This document shows, piece after piece, positions 4,478-48,708 of a DNA stretch of 64,000 bases. Position numbers and translations under genes: made by a program. The notes beneath the pieces are model-generated. The model did no database searches. It saw only the letters and a program-made list of their open reading frames with translations, and was not told where the DNA came from. The stretch lies in assembly GCF_016903815.1 (NCBI RefSeq), contig NZ_CP069973.1, one strand, 5' to 3'. How positions within the stretch are numbered: position 1 is the stretch's first letter; the number at the start of each line of letters is the position of its first letter. This DNA comes from Escherichia coli. Its GTDB lineage: Bacteria; Pseudomonadota; Gammaproteobacteria; Enterobacterales; Enterobacteriaceae.

Positions 4478-5545
4478 CCCTGTTGTGGCCGTTATCACCA
4501 GTAGCGGCCACAAACTATTCCACACAATATCCAGACTCGCATCCTTCAAATAAATCTGCTTGGTAATGTCCGTAAAGTGGCGAATAGGGTTAATCCACGT
4601 CAGGTTTTGCAGCCATACTGGCATGTTTTCCACCGGAGAAACGTAACCGGAAAGGAGAATGGCGGGCATCATAAAGACAAACACGCCGATAAACGCCTGT
4701 TGTTGTGTTGAACAGAGTGATGAAATCAACAGACCGAATCCCACCAGCGATAAACCGTAAATCACCATCGTAAAGTAGAACAGCGCCAGCGATCCGGCGA
4801 AGGGGATTTGATACGCCCAGATACCAATCGCCAGCACAATGGTGGCCTGGAAGGTGGCGACAATTAATGCCGGTACGGCTTTGCCGATGAATATCTGCCA
4901 GGTGGTGAGCGGCGAAACCAGTAACTGATCGAGCGTACCTTGTTCACGTTCGCGGGCAACAGAAAGTGAAGTGACGATCATCACGCCAATAGTGGTGATC
5001 ATGGCGATCAGCGACGGCACCACAAACCATTTGTAGTCGAGATTCGGGTTATACCAGTTGCGTACCACCAGCTCGCTGTTGTTGGGTTTCGGTTTTCCTT
5101 CCAGCAGCTCCTGCTGATAATTTTTGACGATCTGTTGCAGGTAGTTGGCGGCAATTTGCGCACTGTTGGAGTTACGCCCGTCGAGGATCAACTGCAACGG
5201 CGCGGTCTGGAAGGTATCCAGTTTGCGCGAGAAGTCAGCCGGGAAACGCACAAGTAGTAACGCCTTTTGTGTGTCGATGGTCGGGCGGATCTCCTGCGGG
5301 CTTTTCAGCAGCAGCACATGGGTAAAGGCGCTGGCGCGGGCAAAACGTTGAGTAAGTTCTACCGAGTGCTCGCCGTTATCTTCATCGTAGATGGCGATGG
5401 TGGCGTTGGTCACTTCCAGCGTGGCGGCGAACGGGAACAGGATCACCTGAATCAGCACGGGTAAAATCAGAATTGCGCGGGTTTGCGGTTCGCGCAGCAG
5501 CGACTGCAACTCTTTGCGGATTAACGTCCATAAGCGATGAAACAT
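4439..5545 (-). CDS. ybhR: ABC-2 type exporter permease YbhR
   Basis: 368-aa membrane protein, last gene of the ybhG-ybhF-ybhS-ybhR operon. Confidence 0.9.
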
Positions 5546-37155: not shown

Positions 37156-39531
37156 TTAACGCATCCATTCACTCCCTTCAACACCATTGACCAGCAGCGT
37201 GCGTTTTTCTTCCACTGGTAATGACACTTTCAGTGCACTCCATGCAGGTCGATAATCCCCGCGCGCGTTGACTTTCAGGTTGATGGTCGCCCCATCGCAA
37301 ACCATTTCCCATTCCACCCAAAGCGCATTACCAGTTTGGTAGCCCCAGCTTTCGCCATCGTCTTCAAACAGCAGGCCGGACGTTGTGCCCACACCTTTCA
37401 GCGGGAACAGTTTCAGTTCGCGGGTATCGTCTTGTTCTGCGCTCACATAGGTGATGCGTTTGCTGAGCGGTAGACCAGCCCCGGCACGCACCATCAGCGG
37501 CAGTTTCTCCAGCGGTGCGTCGAGGGTGATCCACTGACCGCCACTGAACCATTCGCCGTTGTAGAAATCGTACCAGCCAGTTTCGTTATCTGGCAGCCAT
37601 ACACGGCGCTGGCGCTCGCCTTGCTCTACGACGCTGGCAACCAAAATATCGCGACCAAGCAGGAAGTCATCACACTCTTCAAAAGTCTGAACGTCGTGCT
37701 CGTGGTCAAGGAAAGTCGGACGTAGCATTGGTTCATCATCGGCGTATGCCTGCCACATCAGGGTATAAAAGTAGGGCAGCAGGCGATAGCGCAACTCAAT
37801 AGCGCTGCGGATCGCCGGAGTGACGCCCGGATACATCCACGGTTCGTTTACGGTATGGTCATCGTTCCACGAGTGAATCGTAAAGCGCGGATGCATCACG
37901 CCGTTTTGTACCCAGCGTACAAACAGTTCCGGGTCCGGCTTATCACCGGAGAAACCGCCGACGTCGTGACCGAGGTTATACAGCCCGGAGAGGCTCATCC
38001 CCAGACCCATGCGGGTGTTGTAGCGCAGAGTGTCCCAGCTAGTGCGGTTATCGCCGCTCCAGGTCTGCACATAGCGCTGCATTCCCGCGCAGCCGGAGCG
38101 GGAGATCAAGTACGGACGTTTTTCCGGAGCGAAACGTTGCTGGGCTTCCATCGAGGCTCGCATCATCAGCAGTGGCATCACCGGGCGAATATGTTTGATC
38201 GCGATCGTCTGACCAAAGCCGTGACAGCGTGCTTCACCGTCCCATACTTCGAATTCGTTGTTGTCGTTCCAGGTGGAGTCGATACCCATCTCCAGAAGCT
38301 GTGTGGTCACGCCTTCCTGCCACCACTGGATGGTCTGCGGATTAGTAAAGTCGAGGTTAGAACCTTCGTCATCCCAGAAGCTGGAACGTTCTGGTTCATC
38401 TGTTTCTGAATCACGGATGAACAGTCCTCTTTCTGCCACTTCGTTATAGCGTGGGTGATCCTGCAACAGGCACGGCTTGATATTGGCGGCCAAGTGCAAA
38501 CCAGCATTGTGAAATGCCTGGCTCATCACTTTCGGCTGCGGCACTTTGTCGTAATTCCAGTTGAACACATAGCGCTTGCCGTTAATTGAGGTATAACCGG
38601 AAGAGAGCTGGAACGAATCGCAGGGAATCGCATGTTCTTCACACAGGCGGATAAAGTTCATCAACTGATTTTGTGCGTCCGGCGCATCGGTGTAGTGCAT
38701 AGTTGAACCGCTGTAGCCCAGGCTCCATTTCGGTCCGAACAGGGTTTTGCCGGTCAGGCGTACGAAGGCTTTGGTGATATCAAGTACGCGTTCGCCGGTA
38801 AACAGGTAGTAGTCGATATCACCCGCTTCCGCCTGCCAGCGGCGATAGGCGGTGTGGTAGTTGTCGATCTCGTTGCCCAGATCCAGCCAGCAGCTGCTGA
38901 GGTTGTCATAAAACAGGCCGAAGCTAACGTCATCGCGGCGGGTGATGGTGAATGGAATGTGTTTGTACAACGGGTCAGTACTCACGGCGTTGTAGCCCAT
39001 CGCGTCGAGGTTACGCATCTCGTAACGTTTACCGTTGCGTTGCAGGTCGCCGGCTTTATCTCCGAGGCCATAAAAGCGTTCATCTTTACGACGGCTCTGA
39101 TAGTGCGCCACGCCGTCGCCGTGGGCATTCAGCAGATAAGCGCTGGTCGGGCGGTCATTCACCAACGGCAGCCATTCGCCTTCGTTGTTACGATAGTGCC
39201 ACTCCAGCCACAGCGGCTGGTGAACGGTGGCACGCAGTGACTCGGTGGCGATAACCACGGTGTCGTCGTGCTGGATCAATGTCCACGCGGGCAGGCTAAA
39301 GCCGCTGAGATCTTCGCGGCTGCGCCCTTCCCATGGCACATCCTGCGCCGGAGCAATGCTCCAGGTGCGATCCAGCGCCAGCTCGCCTTTGCGTTTTAAC
39401 AGCACGCGGAACAGATTTTCTTCCAGCACGTACAGGCACAGGATATGCTGGCCATCGACCAGCAGTTCAACGTGGTGGGCAGACTGTTTGTGCAGGGTCC
39501 AGTTTTTCAGCGTTTTCATGTTTACATCCAC
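37156..39531 (-). CDS. glycoside hydrolase family 31 enzyme (alpha-glycosidase), substrate unknown
   Basis: 791 aa; GH31 nucleophile region (GIDSTWNDNNEF, like WiDMNE) and acid/base region (GHDVGGF, like GADICGF); translationally coupled to the upstream MFS gene; not in K-12 between ybiT and ybiU as recalled. Confidence 0.75.
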   Translation of the reverse strand: MDVNMKTLKNWTLHKQSAHHVELLVDGQHILCLYVLEENLFRVLLKRKGELALDRTWSIAPAQDVPWEGRSREDLSGFSLPAWTLIQHDDTVVIATESLRATVHQPLWLEWHYRNNEGEWLPLVNDRPTSAYLLNAHGDGVAHYQSRRKDERFYGLGDKAGDLQRNGKRYEMRNLDAMGYNAVSTDPLYKHIPFTITRRDDVSFGLFYDNLSSCWLDLGNEIDNYHTAYRRWQAEAGDIDYYLFTGERVLDITKAFVRLTGKTLFGPKWSLGYSGSTMHYTDAPDAQNQLMNFIRLCEEHAIPCDSFQLSSGYTSINGKRYVFNWNYDKVPQPKVMSQAFHNAGLHLAANIKPCLLQDHPRYNEVAERGLFIRDSETDEPERSSFWDDEGSNLDFTNPQTIQWWQEGVTTQLLEMGIDSTWNDNNEFEVWDGEARCHGFGQTIAIKHIRPVMPLLMMRASMEAQQRFAPEKRPYLISRSGCAGMQRYVQTWSGDNRTSWDTLRYNTRMGLGMSLSGLYNLGHDVGGFSGDKPDPELFVRWVQNGVMHPRFTIHSWNDDHTVNEPWMYPGVTPAIRSAIELRYRLLPYFYTLMWQAYADDEPMLRPTFLDHEHDVQTFEECDDFLLGRDILVASVVEQGERQRRVWLPDNETGWYDFYNGEWFSGGQWITLDAPLEKLPLMVRAGAGLPLSKRITYVSAEQDDTRELKLFPLKGVGTTSGLLFEDDGESWGYQTGNALWVEWEMVCDGATINLKVNARGDYRPAWSALKVSLPVEEKRTLLVNGVEGSEWMR

Positions 39532-39533
39532 TC

Positions 39534-40841
39534 TCAGGCGCGTTTTGCGCGACGTTCAGCAATAAAGGTGACCAGGAAGAAAGCACCAATCAGGTCAAAG
39601 AAGCCCATGGCGATAAACAGGGGGTTAAAGCCGATTTTGTCAGCGGTAACCCCGATAATCAGGGAGAACAGGAAACTTGCGATCCACGCGGCAGAACCGC
39701 GCATGCCGTTAACAGTGGCCATCTGACCTTTGTCGAAGGATTCCACCACCAGTGCGCTCAGCATGCAGGAGATGATCTGGTGACCGAAGCCGCCGATGGA
39801 AATAAGGACGATGGCGATATACGGGTTATTGGTAAAGGCCATCACCGCCAGCGAAACCATCAGGAATGCGCCACTGACCGATGATGCGACAACGGAGTTC
39901 ACACGACTCAGCCCAAACAGGCGGGTGTAAAGTTTGGTCAGATAGCCGCTGGCAATACTGCCAAGATCAGCGGCGAGGAACGGCAACCAGGCGAATAATG
40001 CGATCTGCTTCAGGTCCATGCCATAGGTTTTGGACAGGTATAGCGGAACCCAGAAACTCATCACCGCCCACGCCGGTTCTGCCATAAAGGCCGGGATAGC
40101 GATACCGTAAAAGCGTTTATTTTTGCCTACGGTTTTCAGTGCGGTCAGAAAGGGTAACTTGACAGGGGGCGCTTCGTTATCCTGGCGGATAAAGTCCAGC
40201 TCGGCTTTGCTGAGGTTAGGATGCTTATCCGGGTTGTGATAGAACGCCCACCACAGCACCACCCACAGCATCGCCAGGATGCCAGTGAACATAAATGCAC
40301 CCTGCCAGCCGAATGAAGCGTGGGCAAAATAGATAATCGGTGGGGCCAGCATGGCACCGATGGAAAAACCGACGCCTGCCCAGCCTGCGGCGATCGGGCG
40401 TTCTGATTTTGGAAACCATTCACCGATGGTTTTGGCGTTTGCTGGGGTTGCCGCGGCTTCCGCACCGCCCATAAAGAAGCGCAACAGCGCCAGATGTACC
40501 CAGTTTCCCGCCCCCGCATGCATCAGACAGGCCAGCGCCCACAGTCCCGCGCAGATCATAAAGCCCAGTTTGAGGCCAATGACGTCAATCAGCCATCCAC
40601 ACAACGGTTGGAATAGGGTATAGGCGAGCTGGAAAGCACCTACAATCCAGGAATATTGTTCGGTGGTAATCCCCAGGTTGCTTTTCAGTTCGGGGGCGAG
40701 AATACCCAGCGAGTTACGCGTGATGTAGTTGACAGTAACACCGAGCAAAAAAAGGACCAGTATCCACCAACGCAGATTTTTGACGATATGGCGCGGTTTA
40801 CTGGCAGTCATATCGTTATTGATACCCTGACTCATATGCAC
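39534..40841 (-). CDS. MFS transporter, anion:cation symporter (ACS) family, ExuT/GudP-like
   Basis: 435 aa, about 12 TM helices; clear similarity to hexuronate transporter ExuT as recalled (…NYITRNSLGILAPEL…EQYSWIVGAF…GFGHQ…); annotated start is GTG at 40841 with an ATG two codons downstream. Confidence 0.75.
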   Translation of the reverse strand: MHMSQGINNDMTASKPRHIVKNLRWWILVLFLLGVTVNYITRNSLGILAPELKSNLGITTEQYSWIVGAFQLAYTLFQPLCGWLIDVIGLKLGFMICAGLWALACLMHAGAGNWVHLALLRFFMGGAEAAATPANAKTIGEWFPKSERPIAAGWAGVGFSIGAMLAPPIIYFAHASFGWQGAFMFTGILAMLWVVLWWAFYHNPDKHPNLSKAELDFIRQDNEAPPVKLPFLTALKTVGKNKRFYGIAIPAFMAEPAWAVMSFWVPLYLSKTYGMDLKQIALFAWLPFLAADLGSIASGYLTKLYTRLFGLSRVNSVVASSVSGAFLMVSLAVMAFTNNPYIAIVLISIGGFGHQIISCMLSALVVESFDKGQMATVNGMRGSAAWIASFLFSLIIGVTADKIGFNPLFIAMGFFDLIGAFFLVTFIAERRAKRA

Positions 40842-40863
40842 TCCACAGAATGGTATAGGGTTT

Positions 40864-40894
40864 GTGTGGCAACGTCAGAATGGAGTTGTCACAC
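40864..40894. promoter_or_regulatory. imperfect inverted repeat gtgtgGcaac-N11-gttgtCacac in the divergent MFS/LacI promoter region (candidate operator)
   Basis: 9 of 10 bp arm complementarity read in sequence, 23 bp upstream of the MFS start. Confidence 0.3.
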
Positions 40895-41129
40895 CACTTT
40901 TAACTTTTTGATAAATAAAGTCTTTATTGTTCGTTTTTCCATTATTTTTGTATGGAAGTTGTTCTACCAATTCACAGTAAGAGACCCTAAAAGCGAAAGA
41001 AAGCGGGTTTTGTGCACGTTTTTCCATGAGTGACTGATATACATTACTGAAATGGATTTAATGCCAGACAGAATGGGCTTTTTTGCTCATGAAAATTCTG
41101 TCATTTCCGAATTAGAGGCAGATCACAAA

Positions 41130-42233
41130 ATGGACAAGAAGCTGAAAATCGCCGATATCGCCGCACGTACCGGGCTATCGCCGAGTACGGTTTCGCGGGT
41201 GCTGGCTGGCAAAGCGAATACCAGTGCACGCGCTCGCGAACAGGTGCTGGCCTGCGCGCGTGAGTTGGGCGTGATGGATGGCATGGCAGCAGGTCGTATG
41301 TTGCTGAACAACCTGATTATTTTCGCGCCGCAACGCGCTTTTGACCAACGATCTGATATCTTTTATTACCGTGTGATCCAGAGCATCAGCAAAGCGTTAT
41401 CGCCGCATGAAGTGCGGCTGCGTTACTGCGCGCTGGAGGAGTTTGACAGCGATCCCGCGCTATTTCTCTCGCGGATGAATGAAGCAGATACGCAGGCGGC
41501 GATCCTGCTGGGGATTGACGATCCGCACATCCATGATCTGGCCGCCGATCTCGCTAAGCCTTGTGTGCTGATCAACTGCCGTGATGAACGAATGCGCCTC
41601 CCGGCGATTGCGCCGGACCATCGGTTAATTGGCGCGTTCGCCGCCCGCTATCTGTTTGAAATGGGTCACCGGGAGGTGATGAATGTGATGTGCCTGCGCC
41701 GCTACACTATGGAGCAGCGGTTTGCAGGGATTAAAGAATCATGGCGTCAGCATAATCTGGCCTTTCACCATGACCGTCATTTGCTGAATATCAGCAGTTT
41801 TAGCGCTAAAGAAGCGGAAGAAAAGGTCGGAGCGTGGCTGGATGCCGCCAATGGCAAGACGTTGCCGACGGCGTTTCTGGTCGGCGGGGATTTTATGGCG
41901 GCGGGAACGGTAAATGCGCTACATCGTCGTGGTCTGCGCGTACCACAGGATGTCTCGGTGATGAGTATCGACGGCTTTAACCTTGCGGCAATCGAGGATG
42001 TTCCCCTGACGGCTGTGCATGTGCCACGCGATGAGCTAGGCAATGAAGCGGTGCAAATGTTGCAACAGCGGCTGATTCGCCCGGATGCTCCGGTGGGCTC
42101 GCTGCTGCTGCACGGACGATTGGCGGTGCGGGAGTCAGTGCGGCGGGTTCGCCCAGGAAAAGGGAACACCGCCGTGGAACGGGAAGGGCTGTACGACACT
42201 CAGCTGTCGATTCCCAACGCTCGCTTACCGTGA
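41130..42233 (+). CDS. LacI/GalR-family transcriptional regulator
   Basis: ORF 41052..42233; start placed at MDKKLKIADIAARTGLSPSTVSRVLAG (canonical LacI HTH), 367 aa; periplasmic-binding-protein-like effector domain; 3' end overlaps the ybiU 3' end. Confidence 0.8.
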   Translation: MDKKLKIADIAARTGLSPSTVSRVLAGKANTSARAREQVLACARELGVMDGMAAGRMLLNNLIIFAPQRAFDQRSDIFYYRVIQSISKALSPHEVRLRYCALEEFDSDPALFLSRMNEADTQAAILLGIDDPHIHDLAADLAKPCVLINCRDERMRLPAIAPDHRLIGAFAARYLFEMGHREVMNVMCLRRYTMEQRFAGIKESWRQHNLAFHHDRHLLNISSFSAKEAEEKVGAWLDAANGKTLPTAFLVGGDFMAAGTVNALHRRGLRVPQDVSVMSIDGFNLAAIEDVPLTAVHVPRDELGNEAVQMLQQRLIRPDAPVGSLLLHGRLAVRESVRRVRPGKGNTAVEREGLYDTQLSIPNARLP

Positions 42234-43465
42234 ATGTTGAGGTCGGCAAGCGTAAAGCGTCCTTCCCAGTTTGTTTCATAGTCCTCGCGCGGGAAGTCGC
42301 CCGGCGATGCGCCTTTTTCCAGTGCGGCCTTCACCTTGTGCGCGTAGGCAAGATTTTTCTCGCACATCGGTGCCGCAGGAATGTACATCACGTTGCCCCA
42401 GCCCTGTTGATTTTCAACGGGGGCAACGGAATGGATGACGTCGCAGTGCCACCAGACGGAGTCTCCGGCTTCGAGTTTTGGAATGCTGGTTAACGCCTCA
42501 ATCAACAGTGGATGCCATTGCTCTGATACCGGCAATACTCTTCCGGGCGCTACGCCGCACAGTTCATCCTCCGGCACATCATCAAGCAGCGGACGTAACA
42601 GTACGTACGCCATGGCTTCAGGAATGGGCACGACGTGCAGCAGCCCCTGACCAGGCAGCATATCAGAGAGCGCTGTCCAGCCCTGGAATGTCCGAAACAC
42701 GGAACATTTGGTGGTGTTGTCCACCGTGTACTCTTCAACTTCCGTACGATGTGCCGCATGCCAGGGATCGTATTTCGCCAGATTGCCATTAAAGACGTTG
42801 GCGAAAACGTGCTGATACGCTGGAAGCAGCCAGCGTTCCAGCGCCCCGGAGTCGGTATGCGCTCCAAGACCTTTGGAGGTCGTTCCGGGCGGACGGCGGC
42901 GGATACGGTCAGGGTAGATGACGCTCACATCCGGGTTAAACCATTGCTTTCCATCACTTTCAAATGTCCACAGACGATTGAGAAACGACTGCACATTCGC
43001 CATTTCTTCACTCTGGCGGGCCTGCATTTGCGCCTGCGACCAGTAGATGGGGTAAATCTCGGGACGTGAAGCGCTGAGCGTCCCGAAGAAATTATCGCCG
43101 GGGCCTTTGTAGACCTCGTCAAAGCGGTTGCGGTCCAGATAGTCCAGCATCGACTGATCCCAGCCTAGCGCTTGTTCGCGGGGGAAATGGCCTTTTATCA
43201 CCGCACAACCGCGACGTTTAATCTGTTCGCGCTGCTCTGCAGTAACATGACCTGCTTTGATATCGGCATAAGACAGCACCGGCCAGACGGCATCGCCCTG
43301 TGCTTTGAGTGCGTTGATTTCAGCCACTCGCGTGGCAATGTCATCGCTTAGCTGATTAAAGATCTGCTGGACGTCGCCAAGCTGCGCCCGCAGCGCGTGC
43401 TTCATCTGACGGATAGCTGCTTTGTGATCGGCAGGCAATGTGTCGCTGGTAAAAGTAGAAGCCAT
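42200..43465 (-). CDS. ybiU: DUF1479-family protein YbiU
   Basis: ORF 42200..43471; start placed at the ATG giving MASTFTSDTLPADHK (421 aa). Confidence 0.85.
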   Translation of the reverse strand: MASTFTSDTLPADHKAAIRQMKHALRAQLGDVQQIFNQLSDDIATRVAEINALKAQGDAVWPVLSYADIKAGHVTAEQREQIKRRGCAVIKGHFPREQALGWDQSMLDYLDRNRFDEVYKGPGDNFFGTLSASRPEIYPIYWSQAQMQARQSEEMANVQSFLNRLWTFESDGKQWFNPDVSVIYPDRIRRRPPGTTSKGLGAHTDSGALERWLLPAYQHVFANVFNGNLAKYDPWHAAHRTEVEEYTVDNTTKCSVFRTFQGWTALSDMLPGQGLLHVVPIPEAMAYVLLRPLLDDVPEDELCGVAPGRVLPVSEQWHPLLIEALTSIPKLEAGDSVWWHCDVIHSVAPVENQQGWGNVMYIPAAPMCEKNLAYAHKVKAALEKGASPGDFPREDYETNWEGRFTLADLNIHGKRALGIDS

Positions 43466-43481
43466 AACCACCTCGCATTAA

Positions 43482-43494
43482 CTTTCATTCGAAA
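43482..43494 (-). promoter_or_regulatory. conserved 13-mer TTTCGAATGAAAG, copy A (ybiU 5' region)
   Basis: Exact 13-mer on the minus strand, 16 nt upstream of the ybiU ATG; identical copies at 44503..44515 and 47951..47963. Confidence 0.4.
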
Positions 43495-43583
43495 CTATAA
43501 TGATTTGCATGTGACAATATAAGTTATAAATAAGTTAATGCAAGTTTAATGATTTGATGTGATGTACAGGATGTAAAAAGAAG

Positions 43584-43608
43584 GGAAAACCGGAGCGCAT
43601 GGCTCCGG
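43584..43608 (-). terminator. rho-independent terminator after ybiV
   Basis: Minus-strand ccggagccatgcgctccgg hairpin followed by ttttccc. Confidence 0.6.
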
Positions 43609-43616
43609 TAGAGAGG

Positions 43617-44432
43617 TCAGCTGTTAAAAGGGGATGTGTTATCCAGCACAGCCTGAATCACGTTCAGCGCGCCTTCATGATTATTATCATCGGTAGCGTA
43701 ACGGGCGATTTGTTTAATGTTTTCCGCAGCATTGCCCATCGCAAAGGAATAACGCGCCATTTTCAGCATCTCCGCATCGTTACCGCTGTCGCCAATCGCT
43801 ACCACATTTTGCGGCGACAGATCCCAGCGTTTCAGTAACCGCGAAATACCATTCGCTTTATGCAGGCCAGGAATAATCAGGTCGATAAAGCCAAAACCAC
43901 TGGTGACGGGTTTCATAATGCCATCCAGCGCTATGTGCAGTTTGTCGATCACTAACGGGATTTGTTCATCCGGCAGGTTGAGCGAAAACTTGAACAGTAC
44001 GTCGTCAATCTCCTGATAATCTTTTACAGGTTTCAGGCGATGGTAGTGTTTTGCCATCAGTGCGACAAATGCTTCAGGGGCATTTTCGCTGACATATGCA
44101 CTTTGCAGACCGCAGGCGACAAAATTGAGTTGCTTATCTTTTAGCAACTCGCCAATCACAATCCGCGATTCATGTCGGGTCAGTTCGCCGTGGAACAACT
44201 GCTTGCCATGTTCGTAAACCAGTGCGCCGTTTTCCGCGACAAAAGAGATCTCATCCTTTAGCTCAGGAAAGAACGAAATAAGCTGGTAATACTGATTACC
44301 GCTAGCGACAACGAACTCAATGCCGCGCTTTTTCAGTTCCTGATATTGCGCCATAAAACGTGGTTGGTTGTACGTTTTGGCGTCGTTAAGAAAAGTACCG
44401 TCCATGTCTGTGACGATAACTTTTACGCTCAT
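43617..44432 (-). CDS. ybiV: HAD-superfamily (Cof-type) sugar phosphatase YbiV
   Basis: 271 aa with N-terminal DxDGT motif ([13 protein letters not shown]). Confidence 0.9.
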
Positions 44433-44502
44433 AGGTGTGCTCCTGGCTCGAAAATGAAACCGTAACAGTGTAATAACAATGTGACGCAGAGCACAAATTA
44501 TA

Positions 44503-44515
44503 TTTCGAATGAAAG
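44503..44515 (+). promoter_or_regulatory. conserved 13-mer TTTCGAATGAAAG, copy B (ybiV upstream / ybiW downstream)
   Basis: Exact 13-mer about 70 bp upstream of the ybiV start; preceded by attata, as copy A is by ttatag. Confidence 0.4.
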
Positions 44516-44577
44516 CGAGGCTGAAATTGATGATGTGAATGATTTGGCCCGGCGACGCCGCCGCCGGGCTGAGGGGA

Positions 44578-47010
44578 TTACAGCATATGTTCAGTACGGG
44601 CGATGATATCGTCCTGTGCGTCTGGAGAGAGCGCGGTGAAGAAGGCGGAATAGCCCGCGACGCGCACTACCAGATCGCGATACTGATCGGGATGTTTTTT
44701 CGCCTCCAGCAGCGTTTCGCGGGAAACGATGTTGTACTGAATATGCCAGCCTTTATGCACCTCGAAGAAGGTGCGCAGCAGGATCATCAGTTTCTGCTTG
44801 TCAGATTCGTTCTCCAGTGTTGCTGGATTCAGTTTCTGGTTGAGCAACACGCCGCCGAGAATCGCTGCCGTAGGCAGTTTACCCACCGAGCCAATGACCG
44901 CAGTAGGGCCAAGATGATCAGTACCGGAAGCCGGGCTTGCGCCTTCTGCCAGCGGGGTGTGGGCTTTACGCCCGTCCGGTGTTGCCATAGTCTGCGCGCC
45001 AAACGGTACGTTAGCGGAGATAGACGACGTACCCGCGTAATAGTTGCCGCCAACCGGACCACGACCGTAGCGTGGGTTATGGTACTGTTTCAGTTCGTCG
45101 ATATAGGTCTGATAAGCGCGAGCCAGCAGCGTATCGACGGTATCATCGTCGTTGCCGTACTTCGGCGCACCGTTAATCAGCCGCTGACGCAGTTGCTCAT
45201 GAGTCAGGCCATCGAAGTCATCCGCCAGTGCGGCAGCCAGCTGTTGCTGACCAATCGCGCCCTGTTCAAACACCAGTTTCCTCACTGCCGCCAGGCTGTT
45301 GCCGAGGTTGGCAATGCCGACCTGCAGGCCAGAAACCCAGTCATATTTCGCGCCGCCTTGCTTGATACTTTTTGCTCGCTCAATACAGTCATCCACCAGC
45401 GCCGAGCAGAGAATATCGTGCACATTCTCCTCCAGCATGGTGTCAACGACATATTCGATTTCGATTGATTTGCGGGTGTAGTAACGGATTTGCGTGTCCC
45501 ACGCGTCCATTACTTCATCGAAATTGTTAAAGTTCCCTGCCGACAACGCTTTTTCTTGTGGCAGGAACACTTTGCCGCTGGTGGCATCACGACCGCCTTC
45601 CAGCGCCGCCAGCATCACACGGGCGAAGTTGATAAAGCTCATGCCGGTACAGCGATAGCCCCATTTGCCACCGACGGCGGTTTCGATACAACCAATCGCT
45701 GCATAGTCGTAAGCGTCCTGCGGTTCAATACCGAGTTTAATAAATTCCGGGATCACGATTTCGTCGTTGTTGAACGCCGGCATCCCGAAGCCGCAACGGA
45801 TCACCTGTACGCAGGCGTCGAGGAAATCGTTGCTCATTCCTGCATGGTAACGCACGCTGAGGTTAGGCTGAGTGGAACGCAGGCGACCGCAGGATTCGAG
45901 GATCGCGTAAGAGAGTGGATTCACCGCGTCCATTGGTTGACCATCAACCAGATTTTGTCCGCCAATGGTGACGTTCTGATACAGCGGACTTCCCGCAGAG
46001 GCTTTCGAGTGCGAGCCGGAGCGGATTTTGTTCACTTCCAGCAGTTTCAACCAGCAGCTATGCAGCATCTCGATGGCGTGTTCACGATCCAGCGTCTGGT
46101 TGAGTTCAACGTCGCGACGATAATACGGGTACAGATACTGGTCCATACGACCAAAAGATACTGAGTGACCGTTAGATTCGATCTGCAAAATCAACTGGAT
46201 GAAGTAACACAGTTGCAGCGCCTGCCAGAAAGTCTGCGGCGGCTGGTGGGCGATAAGATCGCAGTTTTCTGCCATCGCCAGCAGTTCATCGCGACGGCTT
46301 TCGCGGGTTTCGGTCGCGGCCATTTCACGCGCCAGGGCAGCGAAACGTTCAATGTGTTCACTGACTGCCACCAGCACGATATCAATCGCTTTCAGGAACT
46401 GCTCGCCATGTAAATCTTCCAGCACCGTCAGGTTGATGCGCGAGCGACGTTCCGCTACTTTCTCGCGCAGACCATCAAGACCTTTTTCCAGCAGTAGCGG
46501 GAAATTCACCGCCAGGTGCGCATCGCCGGAGGTCATATTGCCTTCCGCTTTAATGATTCCGGTCGCCAGCAGACCTTTTTGCTCATCGGTAAACATGCCG
46601 TAGCAGCGATCCTGTACCGTCTGACCGCGCCACCAAGGGCACACTTCATGCAGAACACGTTTGTTCTCTTCGCTCACCGCAAAGCCAGCACCGGGACGAT
46701 CTGCCAGATCATCAATCTCTTTTTCGATCCAGGAGACGGTATATTCCGGGAAGATCGGCGCGGCGCGAACTTCGCTTGCCTGGTTGCCAATGATCAACTC
46801 ATCGTGCTTGATCCAGATGGTGCGATTCGCCAGGTGATGCGCCAGCGCCAGCGCGCGACGTACCGGGATCGGCTTATCGAGATGTTGTTGATACATCTCA
46901 GTATAGTGCTGCGCGCGCTCGGTACAGACCGGCGGTTTCACAATATGCACCAGCGCATTTTTGTGCGCTTTAATGCGATCGCTGAGCGTGTCCAGTTTCA
47001 GTGTGGTCAT
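44578..47010 (-). CDS. ybiW: glycyl radical enzyme YbiW (PflF), pyruvate formate-lyase-like; substrate not established
   Basis: 810 aa; C-terminal glycyl-radical motif RVAGYSA present. Confidence 0.92.
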
Positions 47011-47015
47011 GGTTG

Positions 47016-47915
47016 TTATCCTCGTAAGGTCGCGGTTAACCCTTTCTGGCAGGCATACTGCTGGGCAAAGTCGAGCAGTTCTGGCGCATCAAGCGGTTGT
47101 TCCGGGGCGTCATAGGGCAGATTAAGTAAGTGATATTTGTTGATGCCCAGCGTGTGGTAGGGCAGGAAATGAATTTCGCTAACGTGCAGCTCGTCGGCGG
47201 CAAAATCGGTAATGGCTTTTACAGAGGTTTCGTCGGCATTAAAGCCCTGAATCAGCGGCACGCGGATAATGATTTTTTTGCCCGCTGCGGCGAGTTTTTT
47301 CAGGTTATCCAGCACTCTGGCGGCGTTACCGTCGGTCCACTGTTTAAACGGCGCGTCGGCAACGTGTTTTAAATCGGCAAGAAACAGATCGATATAGGGC
47401 AGAGAAGGGGCGATATATTTCCACGGCACATGCAGACAAGTTTCTACCGCAGTATGAATGCCGGCCTCGTGGCTGGCTTGCAGCAGCGCCGTCGCCATTT
47501 CCGGCTGCATGAATGGTTCACCGCCGGAAAGCGTTAAGCCGCCGCCGCTGCGATCGTAAAACGGTTTATCCCGCAAAACGGTCGCCATGATCTCCTCAAC
47601 GCTTTTCACTTCACCACACACGGTTAACGCCTGTGTCGGACAGCAGTCGGTTAACGCCGTCAGATGCTCCGGGGTTAACTTTTCCCGATGAATAAGCAAA
47701 CCATTCAGCGCGCGCTCAATCACGTCCGGCGCGGTCTTAGCGCACAGCTCACAGCCTTCCAGGCACAGACGTGGGTCATACAGCAGATCCTGCGTGCGGG
47801 CGCGGCTTTCCGGGTTCTGACACCAGCGGCAGCCCAGCGAACAGCCTTTAAGAAATACGACCGTGCGGATACCGGGGCCATCATGGGTCGAGTAGCGTTG
47901 AATATTGAAAATCAT
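47016..47915 (-). CDS. ybiY: glycyl-radical-enzyme activating enzyme YbiY (PflE), radical SAM
   Basis: ORF 47016..47942; start placed at [15 protein letters not shown] (299 aa) with SD gagagg; CxxxCxxC cluster motif (GCSLGCRWC). Confidence 0.88.
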
Positions 47916-47950
47916 AGTTGCCTCTCTGTTTCGTTCAAACATTAAAATAC

Positions 47951-47963
47951 TTTCGAATGAAAG
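47951..47963 (+). promoter_or_regulatory. conserved 13-mer TTTCGAATGAAAG, copy C (divergent ybiY / fsaA promoter region)
   Basis: Exact 13-mer 36 nt upstream of the ybiY ATG and 83 nt upstream of the fsaA ATG. Confidence 0.4.
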
Positions 47964-48045
47964 TTAGATTGATGTGCGTCAACTGTTCAGAGAGTTTTCC
48001 CGTGATAGTCTACATTCAGACAAAAAGTACATTTTGAGGATGGTT

Positions 48046-48708
48046 ATGGAACTGTATCTGGATACTTCAGACGTTGTTGCGGTGAAGGCGCTGTCACGTA
48101 TTTTTCCGCTGGCGGGTGTGACCACTAACCCAAGCATTATCGCAGCGGGTAAAAAACCGCTGGAGGTTGTGCTTCCGCAACTTCACGAGGCGATGGACGG
48201 TCAGGGGCGTCTGTTTGCCCAGGTAATGGCTACCACTGCTGAAGGGATGGTGAATGACGCACGTAAATTGCGTTCTATTATTGCGGATATCGTGGTGAAA
48301 GTTCCGGTGACCGCTGAGGGGCTGGCAGCGATTAAGATGTTAAAAGCGGAAGGGATTCCGACGCTGGGAACCGCGGTATATGGCGCAGCACAAGGGCTAC
48401 TGTCGGCGCTGGCAGGTGCGGAATATGTTGCGCCTTACGTTAATCGTATTGATGCTCAGGGCGGTAGCGGTATTCAGACTGTGACCGACTTACACCAGTT
48501 ATTGAAAATGCATGCGCCGCAGGCGAAAGTGTTAGCCGCGAGTTTTAAAACCCCGCGTCAGGCGCTGGACTGCTTACTGGCAGGGTGTGAATCAATTACT
48601 CTGCCGCTGGATGTGGCACAACAGATGATTAGCTATCCGGCGGTTGATGCCGCTGTGGCGAAGTTTGAGCAGGACTGGCAGGGAGCGTTTGGCAGAACGT
48701 CGATTTAA
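48046..48708 (+). CDS. fsaA: fructose-6-phosphate aldolase 1
   Basis: ORF 47974..48708; start placed at [16 protein letters not shown] (220 aa); transaldolase-like fold. Confidence 0.92.

Follow-up and report, generated by a model that had tools for sequence, protein, structure and literature searches.

The DNA under study is a stretch of 64,000 nucleotides from Escherichia coli (assembly GCF_016903815.1, contig NZ_CP069973.1), hereafter the window. It contains the cluster formed by ybiU, ybiV, ybiY-ybiW and fsaA, and the 13-mer TTTCGAATGAAAG is present in three exact copies in the promoter regions of these genes. We consider it very probable (about 0.9) that this 13-mer is the core of an operator for YciT, a repressor of the DeoR family encoded elsewhere on the E. 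coli chromosome.

Published evidence on YciT

YciT was studied by chromatin immunoprecipitation with exonuclease digestion (ChIP-exo) by Gao et al. (2021, Nucleic Acids Research, PMC8464067), who listed 49 sites and reported a palindromic motif. In that work YciT represses ybiU, ybiV, ybiY and fsaA, and two peaks, with signal/noise ratios of 24 and 45, were assigned to ybiV and ybiY. All five genes of the cluster are up in the yciT deletion and occupy the top of its differential-expression list, with log2 changes of +7.7 for ybiY, +7.0 for ybiU, +3.5 for ybiW, +2.2 for ybiV and +1.8 for fsaA (Dataset S6 of PMC8464067). A Reg-Seq preprint (10.1101/2025.05.13.653802) reported that the ybiYW promoter is active only anaerobically and that YciT is enriched on a ybiY promoter bait by DNA-affinity mass spectrometry. 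The YciT site described there overlaps with the footprint of the polymerase, and its distance to the ChIP-exo position is "about 100 bases"; the adjacent footprint of an activator, the factor being unidentified, is found about 15 bp upstream of the YciT site. The supplements of this preprint mention neither ybiY nor the motif. YciT displays the Pfam domains HTH_DeoR (residues 4-59, 1.4e-15) and DeoRC (residues 69-227, 7.7e-47), and 5422 of 5426 complete E. coli genomes carry its gene.

The original prediction, which had drawn attention to the 13-mer, suggested a shared regulator for the cluster; this was right, since YciT is reported to bind and repress exactly these genes and to have a palindromic motif (PMC8464067). 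Its remark that no regulator with this motif had been described was out of date, YciT having been reported in 2021 (PMC8464067) and pulled down on the ybiY promoter in 10.1101/2025.05.13.653802. Nor can the cluster still be called orphan: in PMC12441222, YbiW is reported, with citation of Ma et al. 2024, to act on 1,5-anhydroglucitol-6-phosphate.

Three identical sites in the promoter regions of the cluster

The three copies are located at positions 43482-43494 (minus strand), 44503-44515 (plus strand) and 47951-47963 (plus strand), and are referred to as sites 1, 2 and 3. Copies were searched in the window, in the K-12 pieces, in 1.07 Mb of orthologous loci and in the genome-wide ChIP-exo list. 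The number expected by chance in the window is 0; 100 dinucleotide-preserving shuffles produced no match at all, and a chance origin was rejected on this ground. A fourth copy, even with up to two mismatches, is absent from the 64 kb. All copies are intergenic. Site 1 ends 16 nt before the ATG (43465) of ybiU (42200-43465, minus strand) and has the orientation of this gene. Site 2 is included in the spacer between ybiW (44578-47010, minus strand) and ybiV (43617-44432, minus strand), 70 nt upstream of the ybiV ATG (44432), in the opposite orientation to ybiV. Site 3 belongs to the spacer between the divergent genes ybiY (47016-47915, minus strand) and fsaA (48047-48708) and reads against ybiY; its distance to the start codon is 35 nt for ybiY (ATG at 47915) and 83 nt for fsaA (ATG at 48047). 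The distances between the three sites are 1021 and 3448 bp. The identity of the copies, their excess over chance, their intergenic placement and their distances to the genes, all put forward in the original prediction, were confirmed.

Over the cluster, the window is 100% identical to E. coli strain 7/2. K-12 MG1655 possesses the same three exact 13-mers (858301-858313, 859322-859334 and 862770-862782 in NC_000913.2), despite different bases flanking site 1.

The 13-mer as the core of an inverted repeat

The 13-mer is composed of the inverted arms TTTC and GAAA around a centre of 4 nt, and the full site is an inverted repeat of 14 to 16 bp, (A)CTTTC-N4-GAAAG(T). The alignment of 160 nt around each copy reveals that the similarity among the three sites is limited to a block of 16-20 bp, and an extended repeat or mobile element was rejected on the basis of these alignments. 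Sites 1 and 3 are alike in 19 of 20 bases (ATA[G/C]TTTCGAATGAAAGTTA), after which the similarity stops; on the gene strand, TATTTTAAT comes one base after site 3. The related flanks noted earlier are therefore real for sites 1 and 3, but even K-12 lacks the 'tatag' flank of site 1. The bases flanking the ybiU core are TATAG in the window strain and AATGG in K-12. The ybiU operator is also polymorphic within E. coli: the species-representative genome has TTTCGAACGAAAG (locus L008, 9517-9529).

At ybiV, the arms are conserved in at least 95% of 60 genomes, and the centre is ATTC, GAAT or ATAT. This centre flips strand between genera while the position of the site is unchanged. Fixed arms combined with a flipping centre indicate a symmetric protein-binding site and not a directional promoter or leader element. 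The sites had been described as asymmetric, hence perhaps directional; this apparent asymmetry results from where the exact match was cut out of the CTTTC-N4-GAAAG repeat.

The same palindrome under YciT peaks elsewhere in K-12

The ChIP-exo coordinates were converted from NC_000913.2 to NC_000913.3, and the DNA was read under 12 peaks located outside the cluster. Ten of them are centred, within a few bases, on a palindrome of the TTTC-N4(5)-GAAA type: yfcV, the strongest peak in the genome (ATACTTTCCGAATGAAAGTTAAAG), rdcA (TTTCATTTGAAAG), pdeR (TTTCAAACGAAAG), dmsA (TTTCGAGTGAAAA), sixA (TTTCATCTGAAA), yjiT (TTTCATTTGAAA), ompX (TTTCGGGTCGAAA), yhgE (TTTCGTTCGGAAG), yjjI (ATTCATTTGAAAG) and lrhA (TTTCATCCGGAA). 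The yfcV site corresponds to the 13-mer with one base changed and carries the flanks of site 3. As background, TTTC-N4/5-GAAA occurs about 14 times in 87 kb, and most of these occurrences are the YciT peak sites themselves. The two broad peaks at yffQ and yffS, in the K-12 prophage CPZ-55, contain no operator-like site. Both (locus L091, 480-525 and 2008-2053) contain GATGGGAGGTGAA and may represent a different class of signal or an artefact.

The yfcV peak (sixA-yfcV spacer of K-12, locus L004, 684-713) adjoins a fimbrial gene unrelated to the pathway, and the second site of this spacer, TTTCATCTGAAA, is upstream of sixA. YciT peaks with operator-like sites are also located upstream of yjjI, which is of glycyl-radical type (yjjI-deoC spacer, locus L088, 448-478), and of dmsA (locus L089, 410-439); both genes are anaerobic.

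Conservation of the sites and synteny with yciT

A protein-guided scan with YbiW recovered the loci of 80 species-representative genomes, from Escherichia to Yersinia, representing 1.07 Mb around ybiW. The phylogenetic footprinting proposed in the original prediction gave the following result: these loci contain 134 exact 13-mers, all at the three orthologous promoter positions and none elsewhere. The ybiY/fsa site is exact in 61 of 80 genomes and has two mismatches at most in 79. The ybiU site is exact in 49 of 55 genomes, and the entire 13-mer is at least 95% conserved in these 55. The ybiV site is exact in 24 of 60 genomes; in 24 further genomes it is read from the opposite strand with a single change, and the ATAT centre is found in others. 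The spacer DNA flanking the operators is poorly conserved.

In seven genera, a gene for a YciT homologue (58-78% identity) immediately follows ybiW or adjoins ybiU; the genomes concerned are those of Buttiauxella, Franconibacter, two Serratia species, Rouxiella, Brenneria, Mangrovibacter and strain LSJC7. The ybiY operator is AACTTTCATTCGAAAGTA in Buttiauxella and Franconibacter, which is exactly of the ACTTTC-N4-GAAAGT type; close variants are found in LSJC7, Rouxiella and Mangrovibacter, and more degenerate ones in Brenneria and the two Serratia. In most of the genomes where yciT adjoins ybiW or ybiU, and in E. coli, operator and regulator thus occur together. Where the genes are adjacent, regulator and targets probably share a transcript, and the regulator would hence control its own expression. 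In K-12, no good site is present at yciT, and the nearest peak is that of the pdeR promoter, 2.5 kb away.

In Yersinia (loci L085-L087, around position 5034), ybiY-ybiW is kept and neither the operator nor the FNR-like box described below is at its usual place. Homologues of ybiU, ybiV, fsa and yciT are absent within about 6 kb on each side of ybiW. The regulation of ybiY-ybiW is probably different in this genus.

Organisation of the promoter regions

In the divergent ybiY/fsaA spacer, the main operator O1 (47949-47964, plus strand, core 47951-47963; ACTTTCGAATGAAAGT) is an exact copy. If TTTAAT (47941-47946, minus strand) is taken as the -10 box of ybiY, transcription is predicted to start at 47934; (A)TTTAAT is at least 85-95% conserved in 80 genomes. 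In the numbering of the predicted ybiY promoter, O1 then covers -29 to -17; in that of the predicted fsaA promoter, about -67 to -55. A weaker operator-like site, O2 (TTTCGTTCAAAC, 47929-47940, plus strand), starts 22 bp from the start of O1 and spans positions -6 to +6 around the predicted ybiY start. At this position, sites of the TTCATAYGAAA type are present in most genera and are near-perfect in Siccibacter and Atlantibacter, which suggests that YciT may bind O2 as well. Auxiliary sites at about 22 bp from sites 1 and 2 were not seen on reading the sequence.

An FNR-like box (TTGATgtgcGTCAA, 47969-47982) is common to the divergent ybiY and fsaA promoters and matches TTGAT-N4-ATCAA at 9 of 10 positions. 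Its half-sites are at least 95% conserved across the 80 genomes, and its 4-nt centre is not. The centre of the box is at -41.5 of the predicted ybiY start, which fits a class II promoter, and the box is about 42 bp from a weak extended -10 of fsaA. The alignment of the 80 spacers displays a fixed order: the TTGAY-N4-RTCAA box, O1, (A)TTTAAT and the TTCATAYGAAA-type site. This conservation and geometry suggest that FNR could bind the ybiY box. A literature search with FNR and ybiY found no paper linking them, the hits obtained with ybiW and FNR not having been followed up. The geometry of the promoter fits the strong control of ybiYW by YciT, the weak control of fsaA, the anaerobic-only activity and the upstream activator footprint.

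The ybiU operator (43481-43496, minus strand, core 43482-43494; extended sequence AGTTTCGAATGAAAGT) is an exact copy. A sigma-70 promoter is predicted at 43516-43543 (minus strand), with the -35 box TTGCAT at 43543-43538, a spacer of 16 nt and the -10 box TATATT at 43521-43516, and the start predicted from these letters is near 43510. The operator would extend from about +17 to +29. The -35 box and most of the spacer are at least 85-95% conserved across 55 genomes. In the promoter spacer (43519-43537), ATAAGTTA occurs twice as a direct repeat, at 43519-43526 and at 43530-43537, 11 bp apart. A second factor may bind there, judging from the unusually strong conservation of this spacer. A terminator-like hairpin, detected by consensus scan after ybiV (43589-43609, minus strand; a stem of 8 pairs, 6 of them G-C, followed by a T-rich tail), indicates that ybiU is a separate transcription unit.

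The ybiV operator (44501-44516, plus strand, core 44503-44515) is the exact copy of the ybiW-ybiV spacer. It abuts a candidate -10 box TATAAT (44497-44502, minus strand), and the block GAAATAAATTTGTGC is conserved. An alternative -10 box is present about 25 nt further downstream, TACACT in E. coli and TAGAAT in the consensus. Between the operator with its TATAAT and the start of ybiV, a CRP-like palindrome (TGTGAcgcagaGCACA, 44480-44495) has arms at least 95% conserved across 60 genomes and a free centre. Its spacing fits no standard class I or class II arrangement for either candidate ybiV promoter.

Positions of the published peaks in the cluster

Several observations weigh against the assignment of the 13-mer to YciT. 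The peaks listed in the cluster are located at the 3' end of ybiV (window 43636-43669; K-12 locus L002, 3233-3266) and at the start of the fsaA open reading frame (window 48054-48081; L002, 7651-7678), the former 153 bp away from site 1 and the latter 103 bp away from site 3, and no ChIP-exo peak is listed at site 2. Beneath these two peaks no YciT-like motif was found, the only palindrome being the unrelated CTGAAT-CAC-ATTCAG in the 3' end of ybiV. The identification of the 13-mer with the published motif derives from our reading of the peak sequences and not from the published logo (Fig. 2C of PMC8464067). The Reg-Seq site, at "about -5" of a predicted start, fits O1 or O2 and does not designate O1 unambiguously. 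Finally, we found in the literature no footprint or gel shift on the three individual sites; the evidence of occupancy consists of the peaks 103-153 bp away and of the pull-down with the ybiY bait, whose position fits O1/O2.

The 13-mer at ybiY is 103-110 bp from the ChIP-exo peak, and the Reg-Seq site is about 100 bp away from this peak; the authors of 10.1101/2025.05.13.653802 also pointed out this mismatch, of about 100 bp, at ybiY. An error in the conversion of coordinates was rejected, since ten other peaks, among them that of ompX, only 8 kb from ybiU, are centred on the motif after the same conversion. The displacement therefore lies in the published list and not in the mapping. It is possible that it was caused by looping between operators or by an artefact of peak pairing.

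Alternative explanations

It is very unlikely that the 13-mer is the operator of another regulator, either the LacI-family neighbour of ybiU or an undescribed factor, with YciT acting only where peaks were called. The displaced peaks, with no motif beneath them, speak for it, as does the LacI-family gene that adjoins ybiU in the window strain and in many genera. Yet K-12 has all three exact sites without the island that carries this LacI-family gene, and the motif is absent from the LacI/MFS promoter region. Deletion of yciT suffices by itself for a derepression of more than 100-fold, ybiY promoter DNA retained YciT in the pull-down, about 100 bp from where ChIP-exo placed the peak, and the palindrome is central in 10 of the 12 YciT peaks read outside the cluster.

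The original prediction had also considered a directional promoter or leader element. In this hypothesis the copies would be either a promoter cassette made of the 13-mer and TATAAT or a 5' leader RNA element, acting without a repressor. On one strand, a -10-like hexamer indeed follows each copy after 0-1 nt (TATAAT at sites 1 and 2, TATTTT at site 3), and site 1 is inside the predicted ybiU leader. The orientation relative to the genes differs, however, the 13-mer reading with the gene at ybiU and against it at ybiV and ybiY; the TATAAT of site 1 points away from ybiU and is lost in K-12, and a sense transcript would include site 1 only. Conservation bears on the two inverted arms and not on a word with a single direction, and at site 2 the centre changes strand between genera. 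The ybiU leader does not fold better than shuffled sequences (z = +1.29; 183 of 200 shuffles fold as well), and an RNA leader element was rejected for this reason. With mixed orientations, a flipping centre at ybiV and no stable fold at ybiU, the directional element is highly improbable. That the copies are functionless remnants of a small dispersed repeat or of a recent local duplication is hardly conceivable: the near-identity of sites 1 and 3 and the occurrence, in the unrelated sixA-yfcV spacer of K-12, of a near-copy whose flanks are the same could suggest it, but the similarity ends after 16-20 bp, the copies are kept at orthologous positions from Escherichia to Rouxiella while the spacers diverge, no exact copy exists elsewhere in the 1.07 Mb of related DNA, and the near-copy at yfcV is itself the strongest YciT ChIP-exo peak of the genome.

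The neighbouring GH31/MFS/LacI island

An island encoding a GH31 hydrolase, an MFS transporter and a LacI-family regulator is located next to ybiU (window 37156-42233) and is absent from K-12. A homologous LacI-family gene is found beside ybiU in most of the sampled genomes of Citrobacter, Enterobacter, Klebsiella, Kosakonia and Kluyvera, which indicates that K-12 probably lost the island. The motif had been said to be missing from this region, and this holds even for the looser TTTC-N4-GAAA: the island contains no YciT-type site. A functional link of the island to the metabolism of anhydro-sugars is possible.

Proposed mechanism

The sites and their conservation, the dependence of expression on YciT and the binding of YciT in this region are established; assignment of the three sites to YciT suggests the following model. 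The inverted repeat (A)CTTTC-N4-GAAAG(T) would presumably be bound by a dimer or a higher oligomer of YciT, and the three near-identical copies, of presumed high affinity, would provide one operator per promoter of the cluster. At ybiY, the main operator would fill the spacer between the FNR-like box and the -10 box, with the weaker second operator over the start site. The ybiV operator abuts the TATAAT. The ybiU operator would occupy about +17 to +29 and directly precede the ribosome-binding site; with respect to fsaA, the main operator of ybiY would be upstream of the common FNR-like box. Bound YciT could block the binding or the escape of RNA polymerase, by excluding or trapping it, and the outcome would be a tight repression of ybiU and ybiYW and a weaker repression of ybiV and fsaA. 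Other proteins of the DeoR family suggest, by analogy, that YciT is probably released by a sugar phosphate recognized by its C-terminal sensor domain. The reported pathway points to 1,5-anhydroglucitol-6-phosphate or its product, 1-deoxyfructose-6-phosphate, as the likely inducer. Full expression of ybiYW would require both the inducer and anaerobiosis, sensed via FNR.

A more speculative extension, which we regard as unlikely, is that the three operators and O2 form a single looped repression complex of the DeoR style over 4.5 kb, gated by FNR, expression needing anaerobiosis together with the sugar phosphate. Looping, if true, could explain the displacement of 100-150 bp of the ChIP-exo peaks in this cluster only, and the missing ybiV peak.

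Comparison with known systems

The DeoR repressor of E. coli responds to a sugar-phosphate inducer and acts through three palindromic operators of about 16 bp, distributed across the region it regulates, one of which overlaps the core promoter. These operators (TGTTAGAA-TTCTAACA) span about 0.9 kb and loop with an octamer. YciT has the same HTH_DeoR and DeoRC architecture, and three palindromic operators are found in both systems. In contrast, the sequence of the DeoR operator is unrelated, the spacings in the ybi cluster are of 1.0 and 3.4 kb, each ybi operator has its own promoter, and looping is conjectural. AgaR recognizes T-rich half-sites of the TTTC type arranged as direct TTTC repeats, GlpR uses tandem operators about two helical turns apart, and UlaR represses divergent catabolic promoters, with relief by a phosphorylated sugar. 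The ybi sites resemble those of AgaR by their half-sites, but are inverted repeats with a 4-nt centre; the starts of O1 and O2, 22 bp apart, recall the tandem operators of GlpR, and the divergent catabolic promoters those of UlaR. The consensus sequences and the arrangement of the repeats differ from those of all three. Glycyl-radical enzyme operons such as pflB and nrdDG have class II promoters activated by FNR. The ybiY promoter is similar in its TTGAT-N4-ATCAA-type box, 41.5 bp upstream of the predicted start, and in its anaerobic expression; it differs in that the interval from the FNR box to the -10 box predicted from the sequence is occupied by a repressor operator.

The closest system is the YciT regulon itself (PMC8464067; 10.1101/2025.05.13.653802): the regulator, the targets ybiU, ybiV, ybiW, ybiY and fsaA, the repression and the palindromic motif are the same, and the promoter-proximal ybiY site overlaps the polymerase footprint. 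The differences are that the published coordinates (PMC8464067) are 103-153 bp off the operators and that two peaks are listed against three sites. The parts of this literature available to us contain no ybiV operator, O2, FNR-like box, cross-genus conservation or synteny.

Significance for the YciT regulon

The existence of a regulator shared by the genes of the cluster has been in the literature since 2021; it is known biology and no surprise to a specialist. The present analysis adds the base-level positions of the operators, the unlisted third site at ybiV, O2, the conserved FNR-like box, the conservation across genera and the synteny. The practical gain is a correction at the level of curation, the published peaks being 100-150 bp off the conserved operators and the ybiV operator being unlisted. 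The genes ybiYW-fsaA have recently been tied to the anaerobic breakdown of 1,5-anhydroglucitol by gut bacteria, and this pathway now has a base-level wiring diagram, with a YciT operator at every promoter and a probable FNR box, in which the question of the inducer is directly testable. If the looped model were true, the database positions of the YciT sites in the cluster would need correction, and YciT, for which a role in osmolarity was proposed (PMC8464067), would be a dedicated sensor of the radical 1,5-anhydroglucitol pathway and not an osmolarity regulator.

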